64,000 nt of DNA from Escherichia coli (GTDB lineage Bacteria > Pseudomonadota > Gammaproteobacteria > Enterobacterales > Enterobacteriaceae), in assembly GCF_011045215.1 (NCBI RefSeq), contig NZ_CP049201.1; one strand, given 5' to 3'. The number at the start of each line of letters is the position of its first letter. Within the stretch, counting starts at the first letter, position 1. Made by a program: the position numbers. Shown here piece after piece: positions 50,101 through 56,100 of the stretch.

Positions 50101-53100
50101 TTTACTGAACGAGCTGCACAACAGCACTCGCCCGTCGATATCCCAGGAATGAATGGTCCGCGGGCGCGGATACTCCGTTGCCAGTTCGCCGTAGACATCA
50201 TCTTCAAAAATCACAATATCATGACGCTGAGCGAGAGAGAGAACGGCCCGTTTGCGCGCGTCCGGCATAATAAATCCCAGCGGATTATTACAGTTTGGCA
50301 CCAGAATGATGCCTTTAATCGGCCACTGTTCCAGCGCCAGTTCCAGCGCTTCAACGCTGATGCCTGTTTCTGGATCGGTTGGGATTTCAATCACTTTCAC
50401 GCCCATGCCGCGCAGCATCTGCATCGAACCGTAATAACAGGGGGATTCGACCGCGACAATATCGCCCGGTTTACACACCGCCATTAACGCCAGCGACATC
50501 GAGTTATGGCAGCCGCTGGTGATAATGATGTCATCGGCGGTGACCACCGAGCCGCTGTCGAGCATCAGGCGGGCAATCTGCTCTCGCAACACTCGCTGAC
50601 CGGCTAACAAGTCATAACCGAGAACGGTTTGTAGATTATGCTGCACCACCCGGCTTAGCTCCCGCCAGAGTGGTTTCAGGCTGGGCGTTTCGACATCCGG
50701 CGTGCTTTTGCTTAACGGAACAATGGAACTGTCGCTATGCGCCTCCAGCATATCCAGTACCTGATCCCACTGAGTAATTTCCACCGGGCGCTGCACCGGA
50801 CGCGTCATCGGCGGCACTGGCGGTTGGGCTTTCCGTTGTGCGACAAAATAACCCGAACGCGGCTGCGGAGTGATGAGCTTCATCGTCTCCAGCGTCTGGT
50901 ACGCCTGCTGCACGGTGCTGATGCTGACGCCGTGCTCCTGACTTAAGCTGCGCACCGACGGCAATTTCTCCCCGTGACGATACAGCCCTTGCTCAATCCG
51001 CTCGGCAAGTAGAGTCGCCAGATGTTGATAACGCGTCATGCTGTATTCCTTATTTGGACCATACAGAAAGAAAAACCGGTACAGATGAGGCTAAAAAACC
51101 GGATGCAGATTCTGTTTTAACCTGTCTGTATGTTAAATAAAACTAATATTTGCATCTGTATTGTGAACTGCCAGAAGGCGGATGATGAAGCCTCTGAAAG
51201 ATGAGGAGGCAGCAGATGGAATTTTACGAAAACAAAGCCAAAACGCCGTTTATCAGACTTGTGCAACTCTGGCAGGCGGTGAGGCGTTGGCGGCGGCAAA
51301 TGCAGACCCGACGAGTGTTACAGCAGATGAGTGATGAGCGGTTGAGGGATATTGGGTTACGCAGGGAGGATGTGGAGTGATGGGGTATGTTCGTCGCGGA
51401 TAAACCGGATTTCGCTATAACCTTCACAAGGAAGTGGTTATTATTGCGTCATTATTGCTTCACGGAAGGACGCCAGGATGAAAGCCACAGAGGCTCGCCT
51501 ACTCGATTTTTTAAAACGTTCGCAGCAGTTTGTTATTCCCATTTATCAACGCACTTATTCATGGACCGGGCAACAATGTCGGCAACTTTGGGACGACATC
51601 ATTCGTGCCGGAAAGCGTGACGATATATCAGCACATTTTATCGGTTCGGTTGTTTATATAGAGCAGGGATTGTATCAGGTTTCTGGTATTTCTCCGTTGC
51701 TGGTCATTGATGGTCAGCAGCGGCTGACGACCGCAATGTTGCTGATTGAGGCTTTATCGCGCCATCTTGGCGAAGACGAAGTTTTTGATGGCTTTTCGGC
51801 AATGAAATTGCGTAATTATTATTTGCTCAATCCTTATGAGTCCGGCGAGAAAGGTTTTAAATTACTGCTGACCGAGACTGATAAAGACAGTTTACTGGCG
51901 TTAATAAAACAAAGACCAATGCCAGAAAACTATTCCCATCGAATAATGGAAAACTTTACTTTCTTTGATGAACAAATTGCCAAACTCGGTGATGACTTGA
52001 TCCCCTTATGTCGTGGGTTAGCAAAGTTATTAATTGTCGATGTGGCGCTTAATCGTGGTCAGGATAATCCGCAACTGATTTTTGAAAGTATGAACTCTAC
52101 CGGTAAGGCGTTAAGTCAGGCCGATCTGGTGCGCAATTTTATTCTGATGGGCCTCGAACCAGAGCATCAAACCCGGTTGTATGAAGATCACTGGCGTCCA
52201 ATGGAAGTCGCTTTTGGTCAGCAAGGTTACAGCGAATATTTTGACAGTTTTATGCGTCATTATCTGACGGTAAAAACGGGGGAGATCCCTCGGACAGATG
52301 AAGTCTATGAGGCATTTAAACTCCATGCCCGCAGCCAGCGTGTTGCTGAAAAAGGCGTAGATCGGCTGGTTGAAGATATTCACATCTACGCGGAGTATTA
52401 CTGTGCAATGGCATTGGGAAAAGAAAGTGACAAATCGCTTGCTACGGCTTTTCAGGATTTGCGCGAGTTAAAGGTCGATGTGGCGTATCCTTTCTTACTG
52501 GCGCTTTATCATGACTATAAAAATGACGATTTGTCTCACGAAGATTTCCTGAGCATAATTCGTTTAATTGAATCTTATGTTTTCCGCCGTGCAGTATGTG
52601 CAATTCCGACAAATTCTTTGAACAAGACATTTGCCACTTTTTATAAAGTTATTAATAAAGAAAATTATCTGGAAAGTATTCAGGTACATTTTTTGAATCT
52701 ACCTTCATATCGTCGTTTCCCCAACGATGATGAATTTAAACGGGAATTAAAAGTTCGCGATCTCTATAACTTCCGCAGTCGCAGCTACTGGTTACGACGA
52801 CTGGAAAACGATAAACGCAGAGAGCGCGTAGAAGAGTTTACTATTGAGCATATTATGCCGCAGAACGAAAATTTGTCGGCTAAATGGCGTGAAGAGCTGG
52901 GAAGTGACTGGCAACGCATTCATAAAGAATTATTGCATACGTTGGGGGATCTCACTTTAACGCGCTATAACTCCCGCTACAGTGACAGACCTTTCGCGGA
53001 AAAACGCGATATTGAAGACGGCTTTAAACATAGCCCGCTCTATTTGAATATCGGTCTTGGACAGTGCGAAAAATGGGATGAAGCCGCCATTCATGCCCGA

Positions 53101-56100
53101 GCCGATCGTCTGGCCGATCTCGCGGTTCAGGTCTGGCAAGCGCCTTCTCTTCCTGAAGAGGTTTTGGCTGTTTATCGGGGACAGCCTGAAAACAAAACCA
53201 GTTACAGCCTGAGTGATTATCCTTTTCTTGCTGATGGTTCGCATAGCCGGGTGTTATTCGATCATCTTCGCGATGAAGTTATGCGCCTGGACGCAGGGAT
53301 CACGCAGGAAGTATTGAAGCTATATATTGCGTTTAAAGCTGAAACGAATTTTGTTGATGTTGTGCCGCAAAAAAGCCGACTGCGATTGTCGCTTAATATG
53401 CAGTTTCATGAACTGGTCGATCCGAAAGGTATTGCCAAAGATGTGACAAATGTTGGGCGCTGGGGCAATGGCGATGTGGAAATTGGTTTCAGTGACCTCG
53501 CACAACTTCCTTACGTTATGGGATTAATTCGTCAGGCATTTGAAAAACAGATGGAGAGCGCGTTGGTCTAACACGGCGAATAATACCCGGTAGCACTGGT
53601 GCTACCGGGTCAATGTATCAGGCAACTTTCTGTTTACCCGCAATCACTCCAATAAACTCCTGCACCTGCTTTTGTTTACGTGCCGACAGTTTGCACACCT
53701 GGCGTAGCGACTGCATCAGTTCGCTCTCTTCGGCGGTGGGTGGTTGGGCGGTGAGGACAATACAGCCTTCCATCACTTTGACATCTACCGCCGTGCCGGT
53801 GGCAAAACCGGCGGCTTCCAGCCACTGACCTTTCAGGGTGATGGCGGGAATACGGCTGTAATCCGGGTAGCGACTCGCATAACTCACGGTTAATTGACGG
53901 TTATTTGCCGGGGAGACTTCTGCTTCGAACGGTTGTGCAATAGAATGCGTGTCAGTCATAACTGCTATTCTCCGATAATAGTGATTGTGATTAGCGGTGC
54001 GGGTGTGTTGGCGCACATCCGCACCGCGCTAAATACCTGGATATATCATCAGTAAATACAGGGAAAGTCCAGCTAAAAATAGAATAAAATAGGCAGTTTC
54101 TGGAATAATTTAAATATATTTGCGTGAGTTATGATTGGCATGAAATAATAAAAAGCGCACCGGAAAGGTGCGCCAGAAAATAATGATCAGGATTTTTTAC
54201 GCGAGGCTTTTTTACCCCCGTTGGCTGCGCGTTCAGCTTTGATTTTTTCCAGCAACGCGGCGGCGCTGTTTTCTCCGCTGATTAAATCCGGGTTTTCGGC
54301 CCGCCACTGGGCGGTGAGTTCTCCACGGAACGCTTTTGCCAGGATGGATTGCGTCAGGTTGTTGACGCGGGCTAAGGCGTTGTTGACCTGTTTTTCTATG
54401 GTGTCGGCGTAGGCGAAGAGCTGCTCGACGCGGCGAACGATTTCGGCTTGTTCATAGAGTGAATATAAAGGTACCATTATTGATGAAATTTTAGAAATAC
54501 TTAATGTATAGAGTCCTGCTCCAGATGTGGCGCGATTAATAATTTCTGCCTTACCTTGTGCAGACATTAAATAGAAAAGGAGAAACCTTGGAGAAATTAT
54601 TTCTCTATTTGCCCTAACTTTTATTAAATGGTTTTGATGTACGCACTCTTTGATTTCATCACGCCATAGTGCAGCTCGACCAATTTGATCAAGACTACCA
54701 TTGCCTTCAACTATTAATAAATCTTCATACTCTAATGATACACGATCCAGTTCTTTTTGTTGAACTCCGATTTCGGAAATATCTTCTAATCTCAATTCAT
54801 TTTCATAGACATTTGCCACACGCAAATATGGAACTTGCAACTCAAAATTATTACGTTTCGAGTTTTTTGTAAGACCGCCAATCACTTGGGCTATTTGACT
54901 AATATTGAAATAATTAATTGGGGAGATATTTGTAAGTTTCCCACTTACAGCCGCAGCCAATACCGCCTGACGAAAACGTTTCATGATTTGTGGGATTTTC
55001 TCAAGGCGTGCTTTGGTGCTGTCTACTTGCGCCAGCAGCGTATCGAGTTTTTCCGCAATTATTTTTTGCTCGGCAAGTGGTGGCAACGGAAGTAGGGTAT
55101 CTTGAAGTGTCCTGGAAGAAAGATGCTTCACCGTAACCGAGGACGTATTTGCATTGATTGCGGATAAATATCCTGGTAAGGCATGATAGAAAAATCTTTT
55201 ATTGTATTTGTCTTCCTGAACTTCGATTTTACATACTCGTTGATTTAACAGAGCGGGCTCCGAGCGCCATATAGTTGTATTAAAATCACCATCCATTCCC
55301 ACGATTAAGTCTTCGGGATATACCCAATATCCCTCAGGAATTTGCCCCGAGTAATAAGTCGATGTATTACCTTTAAGAACATCACGAATTCTAATTAATG
55401 GTACACCTTCTTTACGATTATTAAATTCTGCCGACTTAAAAGCAAAACCGTTTGTGATGTTTGCTACGGAATCCATTGGAATACGTAACCAGCTCTCATG
55501 GATTGAAAGTAACCCATTGATATTTTGCTCAATTAATTCTTTTGATGTTGAGTTGAAACTCATTCCTTCACCCCACCAAACGCTTCTTCCAGCAACTGAC
55601 GCTGCGCATCCGCCTCATCGCTCGCCCCCAGTTCACGCATCAGCGCATCCAGTTCAGACAGCGCCTGCACCAGCTCGCCCATCGCTTCTGCCGCTAATAC
55701 ATCCGGCTCCGGCAGGCTGTCGGCATCAATACTGTCTTTATCTTTCAGCCAGGAGATATCCAGCGAATCGGATTTCGCGGTGCGGATCCACTCGCGGCTG
55801 AACTTACGCCAGCGGCTGGTAGCCAGGTGCTGGTCGGTGTTTTTGTTCTCTTCGCTGTCGGCAACTTCCGTCTCTTCGGCGTTAAAACTCCATTCCCCTT
55901 CACTACGCGGGCTTAAACCGTGCGGGTCTTCGCCATACACGCGCTCAAACGGCTGCAAATACTCGTCGGTAAACGGCGTGCGTTTACCAAAGCTCGGCAT
56001 ATTGGTCCGCAGGTCGTACACCCACACGTCATCGGTGCAGTTCTTATCCTGATGCGGGTTCGCCACTGTACCTTTGGTAAAGAACAGCACGTTGGTCTTC

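Follow-up and report, generated by a model that had tools for sequence, protein, structure and literature searches.

A GmrSD-family type IV restriction gene in the yjiS-symE slot of an Escherichia coli immigration control region, with an aspartate at the GNL asparagine of its HNH motif

GmrSD-type nucleases and the cassette between yjiS and symE

Genes of the GmrSD family have been described within Escherichia coli's immigration control region (ICR), in a dedicated section and Fig. 8 of He et al. 2015 (PMC4437046), and a 2025 EcoSal review puts the share of ICRs with GmrSD at 12% (PMC12707154, Table 3) and the share with McrBC at 6%. Here, we describe such a gene in a 64,000-nucleotide stretch of E. 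coli contig NZ_CP049201.1 (assembly GCF_011045215.1), referred to below as the window. The gene is an ATG-initiated open reading frame (ORF) of 697 amino acids, found without interruption at 51478..53571 on the plus strand, and, as the original prediction made from the sequence had it, its stop codon lies 46 bp (53572-53617) from the stop codon of the convergent symE gene. The published ICR GmrSD is the same gene in the same slot, beside hsdRMS and mrr and with mcrBC absent. The arrangement, which had been put forward as a new variant, is a known and frequent ICR haplotype that was already in print in 2015 (PMC4437046, Fig. 8).

Several described systems resemble the protein encoded here to different degrees. 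Eco94GmrSD/CT596 GmrSD has the same single-chain combination of DUF262 and DUF1524, the same DGQQR and (D/E)H...N motifs and a presumed nucleoside triphosphate (NTP)-stimulated cleavage of modified DNA. It is prophage-borne, restricts T-even DNA containing glucosyl-hydroxymethylcytosine and is inhibited by T4 IPI*, whereas the gene in the window is part of the chromosomal ICR. The two proteins are distant in sequence (the PADLOC model mREase_IV matches the window protein at 5e-27, as against 1.6e-222 for its best model), and the window protein has an extra DUF5655 domain. For APECO1_2080, 24% identity to Eco94GmrSD has been reported (He et al., PMC4437046). BrxU of pEFER (PDB 7P9K) has a GmrSD-family fold in which NTP binding precedes HNH cleavage; it is the weaker Foldseek match (2.3e-5), belongs to a BREX locus and is without DUF5655. 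DndI (9JFL) and SspE (6JIV, 7DRS) are the best solved matches both by profile and by fold, with the EH...GNL...N motif aligned, but they have adjoining phosphorothioate-modification genes, of which the window has none, and they are without the DUF5655 tail.

Within the family, the largest enterobacterial GmrSD cluster, CLS_001, includes D782_3934, which has yjiA, hsdMSR and symE in its neighbourhood, and one synthesised representative per group was tried on T-even phages in the same study, which reports five newly active GmrSD groups (Silas et al. 2025). D782_3934 is 74% identical to the window protein. Named E. coli members are orthologues at much shorter distance, with 6 amino acids different in ATCC 8739 and 17 in APEC E12053. 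An upstream in-frame ATG extends the protein to 733 amino acids in WCHEC4533, WP3-W18-CRE-03 and APEC E12053, which is the length reported for APECO1_2080.

The position of the gene was established by blastn comparison of the window with K-12. Homology to K-12, covering yjiR and yjiS, ends at 51388 and restarts at 53622 at the symE stop, and the sequence from the point where yjiS homology gives out up to the stop codon of symE (51389..53621) is a variable ICR cassette that is without a K-12 counterpart and measures 2.2 kb, as compared with 7.6 kb in K-12 (yjiT, yjiV, mcrC and mcrB). Searches of the 64-kb window by tblastn and blastn with K-12 McrB, McrC, YjiT and YjiV and with the whole 7.6-kb cassette yielded no match, so that the predicted lack of mcrBC held and no mcrBC-derived sequence turned out to have been missed. 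Beyond symE follow hsdS, hsdM and hsdR, and then mrr and yjiA by homology. With its place between yjiS and symE, its proximity to hsdRMS and mrr and the absence of mcrBC, the cassette belongs to the ICR GmrSD type, and the slot held by McrBC in K-12 is filled by a type IV restriction gene of the GmrSD family. Pfam assignments and the K-12 comparison both bear out the single-chain GmrSD-family protein that had been predicted for this slot.

Three domains make up the protein. GmrSD_N/DUF262, a ParB-like NTPase domain, spans residues 9-222 (51502..52143, plus strand; Pfam PF03235, 4.1e-34) and contains the DGQQR motif D78-R82 (51709..51723, plus strand), for which a role in NTP hydrolysis has been proposed (PMC4619093, PMC8565348). 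The positions of this motif are kept in 134-137 of 136-137 aligned distant homologues; in one alignment D78, Q80, Q81 and R82 are invariant and G79 is nearly so, and Q24-R25 and F202...N206 are likewise present and conserved among homologues. GmrSD_C/DUF1524, the His-Me finger (HNH) nuclease domain, spans residues 415-547 (52720..53118, plus strand; PF07510, 1e-24). The original prediction had rightly placed DUF262 at the N-terminus, but DUF1524, which it had placed at the C-terminus, is central, and it overlooked the DUF5655 domain of YdhG/YjbR-like alpha+beta fold that occupies the C-terminus (residues 591-690; 53248..53547, plus strand; PF18899, 2.6e-13). The nuclease domain has the dyad E457-H458 (52846..52851, plus strand) of an EHxxP motif, here E457-H458-I-M-P461, with H458 as the general-base histidine; among distant homologues, position 457 is E in 143 of 147 and position 458 is H in 142 of 147. 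Substitution of the equivalent residues abolishes cleavage in BrxU (D474A/H475A) and in Eco94GmrSD (D507A/H508A) (PMC8565348, PMC4437046). The second asparagine of the motif, the metal ligand N498, is present and conserved in 120/120 close and 139/143 distant homologues, and it aligns with N541 of DndI, whose N541A mutant lost defence (PMC11662687). K509 is also conserved, in the window protein and in its homologues. In an AlphaFold2 model with a mean predicted local distance difference test score (pLDDT) of 91.5, strands at 455-458 and 492-495 and a helix at 498-501 are, as modelled, those of the beta-beta-alpha-metal finger.

The C-terminal 142 amino acids found no sequence match in the PDB even at an E value of 10, a literature search on DUF5655 returned nothing relevant, and no NCBIfam model matches the 697-aa protein. 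Further PADLOC matches include HEC-06 at 7e-66; the top model is 'Orf5' (1.6e-222). The family comprises 18,570 representative clusters at E<=0.001, and the three-domain form of about 700 amino acids predominates in the best 150 matches.

By homology with Eco94GmrSD, BrxU, DndI and SspE (PMC4437046, PMC8565348, PMC11662687, PMC4619093), we infer a mechanism in which the ParB-like DUF262 domain would bind and hydrolyse NTP through Q24-R25, D78-G-Q-Q-R82 and F202...N206. This NTP step would allow the His-Me finger of DUF1524 (E457-H458, N491 and N498) to cut or nick foreign DNA with a modification that is absent from the host. More speculatively, DUF5655 may aid nucleic-acid or target recognition. 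Specificity for modified DNA and restriction of phage are presumed for this gene, and modified foreign DNA is the presumed target in view of the family to which the protein belongs and of the place of its gene, next to Mrr and in the stead of McrBC.

Residue 491 and recurrent breakage of the gene

Codon 491 (52948..52950, plus strand), the 'G-N-L' asparagine of the E/D-H-N-N motif, is AAT (Asn) in relatives and GAT (Asp) in the window. Across 51000-54200, the sole difference from the nearest genome, NZ_OZ197100.1, is this G in place of A at 52948. Asparagine is found at the position in 120/120 close cluster representatives and 143/144 distant ones, which makes 263 of 264 representatives, at identities as low as 34%, and it is also kept in DndI and SspE. 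The window allele (D491) thus departs from the family at the first, structural asparagine of the motif; the assignment to the GmrSD family stands, and the activity of this allele is in doubt. Of the original description of the gene as intact, the uninterrupted reading frame stood, but conservation of the nuclease motif failed at this one residue. In the AlphaFold2 model, the HNH finger's second strand begins right after residue 491.

The exact D491 protein is recorded from a single contig (QIF15163.1), as compared with 27 contigs for the N491 sister allele, and the 61 bases around the change have matches in 858 complete genomes, none of them exact. Only two differences, of which N491D is one, separate the window from NZ_OZ197100.1 in a 6.9-kb block that they share (about 49308-56180, from yjiR to part of hsdM), the flanks of which differ by 1-5%. 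This pattern suggests that the ICR segment was recently exchanged, and since the block is near-identical inside more divergent flanks, N491D is a recent, derived change. One of the two block differences is at 50560 in yjiR, a gene that is annotated as frameshifted in NZ_OZ197100.1 and is intact in the window.

The equivalent asparagine (GmrD N169; Gme HNH N68) has been given a crucial structural role by Machnicka et al. (PMC4619093), and N68 of Gme HNH appears there, by citation of other work, as critical for activity and folding. In BrxU, N519A gave less than 10-fold protection in vivo, and DNA was still degraded in vitro (PMC8565348). N491D removes an invariant residue, the 'GN' asparagine by which the HNH hairpin is stabilised, and the in vivo activity of the D491 enzyme is therefore probably reduced or absent. 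The domains and motifs, the place of the gene in the genome, its frequency in the population, its lack of homology to YjiT and the absence of mcrBC were each observed directly, and we hold with reasonable confidence the reading that these are best accommodated by a common, published ICR GmrSD-type nuclease, with a presumed modified-DNA target, of which this allele is probably attenuated by N491D.

Several points weigh against this reading. The literature search found no experiment on the 697-aa protein or its close orthologues, and its nearest solved relatives, DndI and SspE, sense phosphorothioate and not modified cytosine. BrxU N519 is equated with N491 by motif spacing only, its alanine mutant cuts DNA in vitro, and aspartate is a milder change than alanine, so that N491D might be tolerated. 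The D allele is moreover known from a single assembly, in which a sequencing error is possible.

It is therefore conceivable, if rather unlikely in our judgement, that the window allele is a fully functional type IV enzyme and N491D a tolerated or neutral polymorphism. The intact reading frame, the retention of every other motif residue and the nature of the substitution, aspartate being nearly isosteric with asparagine and still a hydrogen-bond acceptor, all speak for such an allele, as does the in vitro cleavage by the probably equivalent BrxU mutant. They have to be set against the near-invariance of the asparagine, the lack of any exact match to the 61 bases among 858 genomes, the loss of nearly all protection by BrxU N519A in vivo together with the cited importance of Gme HNH N68, and the appearance of the change as one of only two differences in the shared block.

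A still smaller probability attaches to the G at 52948 being a sequencing or assembly error in what is truly an ordinary N491 gene, as could be supposed of a protein known from one contig, of which no further copy was found. Substitution errors are rare in finished assemblies, however, and the change is a clean transition in non-repetitive sequence; independent inactivating lesions in other lineages also demonstrate how common loss of function is among alleles of this gene. The preferred reading of N491D as a genuine and probably attenuating change is a strain-specific point that goes beyond the retrieved literature.

Of 5,426 complete genomes of E. coli, 1,283 share the layout of the window, with 80% or more of 51000-54200 in one piece, and 1,358 have 80% or more of the gmrSD-family gene, with carriers including ATCC 8739, O157:H7, O121 and APEC strains. 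Other genomes have yjiS joined straight to symE, or keep only the first 327 or 918 nt of the gene. Some have, at another place in the ICR, a paralogue of 699 amino acids and 73% identity, beside yjiA with Fic and BrnA genes.

Copies from 11 other genomes were sampled for breakage. Seven encode the intact 697-aa protein, and four are broken by four different lesions. In O157:H7, a 1-bp deletion that shortens a run of five G to four (52278..52282 of the window, plus strand; alignment with strain ECP19-598) splits the gene into ORFs of 293 and 387 amino acids. Strain H3 lacks 1 bp at nt 473 of the gene, strain 700481 has W239* and strain 550 has Q33*. In an evenly spaced genome table, 11 of the 34 full-length rows span 2,093 bp and not 2,094 bp. 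The gene has been repeatedly inactivated in E. coli lineages, and N491D fits this pattern; counted together, the O157:H7 frameshift, the second frameshift, the two nonsense mutations and N491D make five independent events.

RefSeq/PGAP annotation splits even intact 697-aa copies in many genomes, as at seven loci compared here, into a partial 'DUF262' pseudogene and a 387-aa 'GmrSD domain' coding sequence, a split that appears to copy the O157:H7 split proteins. This systematic RefSeq mis-annotation adds to the retrieved literature, as does the evidence that the gene was inactivated repeatedly and independently.

Relation to DndI and SspE and to the K-12 cassette

As the nearest solved relatives of the 697-aa protein are phosphorothioate-dependent, it has to be considered whether it is an SspE/DndI-like effector that reads host phosphorothioate marks to regulate a nickase acting on phage DNA, and not a type IV enzyme directed at modified bases. 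A PDB profile search built on 73 homologues gave E values of 7.8e-39 for DndI (9JFL) and 6.7e-22 for SspE, the EH...GNL...N motif being aligned, and Foldseek with the model returned them at 1.5e-16 and 1.5e-14, ahead of BrxU (2.3e-5); PADLOC models for SspE match the N-terminus as well. These SspE matches span only the common DUF262 and HNH motifs, however, and no dnd or ssp modification genes lie next to the gene or anywhere within the 64-kb window, the annotated equivalent of which has genes of the nan, fim, uxu, yji and hsd groups. The gene is found by itself next to hsdRMS and mrr in over 1,300 genomes. We regard such an effector as very unlikely, and the GmrSD-type nuclease with a presumed modified-DNA target is preferred.

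The K-12 cassette occupies the same yjiS-symE slot of the ICR, and type IV restriction is a function of both cassettes. The original prediction correctly placed yjiT, yjiV, mcrC and mcrB at this slot in K-12, but it took the 697-aa gene for the uninterrupted form of a truncated K-12 yjiT, and this relation is refuted. There is no homology between 51389-53621 and the 7.6 kb of K-12. K-12 YjiT (503 aa) matches the 697-aa protein by BLASTP only at an E value of 0.95 and has no Pfam domain and no DUF262. Within 4912-9353 of the K-12 locus, PADLOC matches YjiT instead to the N-terminal half of the Druantia type III protein DruH (6e-241; positions 1-503 in a profile of 1100) and the two yjiV pseudogene pieces to DruE at 7.7e-277 and 6e-60. 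A 2026 preprint also places DruH in the YjiT family and notes its ICR location (PMC13192584). From these sequence matches, K-12 yjiT and yjiV are read as a decayed Druantia III system beside McrBC and not as a truncated GmrSD. Apart from the shared position just downstream of yjiS, nothing in these comparisons of protein, profile and nucleotide sequence leaves appreciable weight for an ancestral, uninterrupted yjiT in the window. A 5' remnant of gmrSD in K-12 was also considered and was rejected, K-12 homology ending at 51388.

Neighbouring genes and implications for the family

On the other side of the 46-bp gap, symE (53618..53959, minus strand; NCBIfam equivalog NF010128, 3.5e-69, 229.8 bits against a cut-off of 132) encodes the SOS-induced type I toxin of 113 amino acids, and the antisense antitoxin RNA SymR lies over its 5' end at 53954..54030 on the plus strand (Rfam RF01809, full length 1-77, 90.9 bits against a gathering threshold of 61, E 2.6e-17). 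Together with a predicted LexA site upstream, these make up a SymE/SymR type I toxin-antitoxin locus. The LexA-box-like site CTGGATATATCATCAG at 54037..54052 is orthologous to CTGTATATATCATCAG of K-12, from which it differs by one base (CTGT in K-12, CTGG here), and the CTGG variant is common to NZ_OZ197100.1 and O157:H7. LexA control of symE (yjiW) has been described in K-12 (PMC1891008). The CTG-N10-CAG pattern that had been taken to indicate SOS control is indeed present, but the bare pattern was rejected as evidence, with 17 occurrences in the window as compared with 10.2 expected, and the predicted LexA site at 54037-54052 is proposed solely because of its orthology to the K-12 site.

The gap between the convergent stop codons contains a perfect 11-bp hairpin at 53585..53610, found by RNA folding (-22.2 kcal/mol, z -2.97), and none of 200 shuffled sequences was equally stable. 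The consensus terminator scan missed it, there being no T-run after it on the plus strand; it is a possible two-way terminator. Promoter and terminator consensus scans of 51000-54250 gave counts no higher than in shuffled sequence, with no convincing promoter for gmrSD.

A second DUF262 protein in the window, also part of the original prediction, was confirmed at 683..2599 on the minus strand. It is architecturally different, a 638-aa protein with GmrSD_N/DUF262 at residues 277-409 (3e-24) and no DUF1524, and among PADLOC models it best fits NsnA of the Menshen system (2.4e-115). The ORFs beside it at 3500-4051 and 4099-5547 matched no NsnB or NsnC model, and downstream partners would fall before the start of the window. 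In the leuX-side island, a gene at 6169-7098 (minus strand), with a PADLOC HNH match at 4.7e-25, is annotated in the related genome as a restriction endonuclease that binds phosphorothioated DNA, and another at 7178-7828 (plus strand) encodes an HNH endonuclease with weak mREase_IV matches. The window thus has several candidate modification-dependent nucleases. In O157:H7, at 17179-18830 of its locus, a short DUF262 protein and an HNH endonuclease replace mrr beside yjiA and could be another split GmrSD-like gene.

In hsdS (54187-55563, minus strand), alignment to K-12 hsdS is confined to three parts: the 3' end as far as 54453, 150 bp in the centre (54931-55083) and the junction on the 5' side. 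As both target-recognition regions differ from K-12, the type I specificity should be other than that of EcoKI. The Rpn-family gene yjiP/yjiQ (48442-49385, plus strand) is split into two ORFs, 48442-48978 and 48780-49385, that overlap; annotation makes it a frameshifted pseudogene in related genomes and gives it an internal stop in K-12.

These results have consequences for how the locus is read in other strains. Annotators should read K-12 yjiT and yjiV as Druantia III remnants and not as GmrSD, and surveys that depend on annotation would miss the intact 697-aa gene. An 'intact ORF' can in turn overstate function: an invariant HNH residue is gone from the copy in the window, and of the 11 other copies sampled, four are broken by separate lesions. 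For the commonest GmrSD subgroup of enterobacteria, no substrate assignment could be retrieved, a gap that bears on the prediction of phage host range in E. coli. An explanation for the breakage that we offer as speculation, and consider improbable, is that ICR GmrSD is under recurrent selection for inactivation, possibly through attack on a DNA modification gained by some lineages, for example from prophage methyltransferases. If true, comparison of gene loss with methyltransferase content over about 1,350 genomes would reveal the substrate of this subgroup, and DUF5655 could be the domain that reads that modification.

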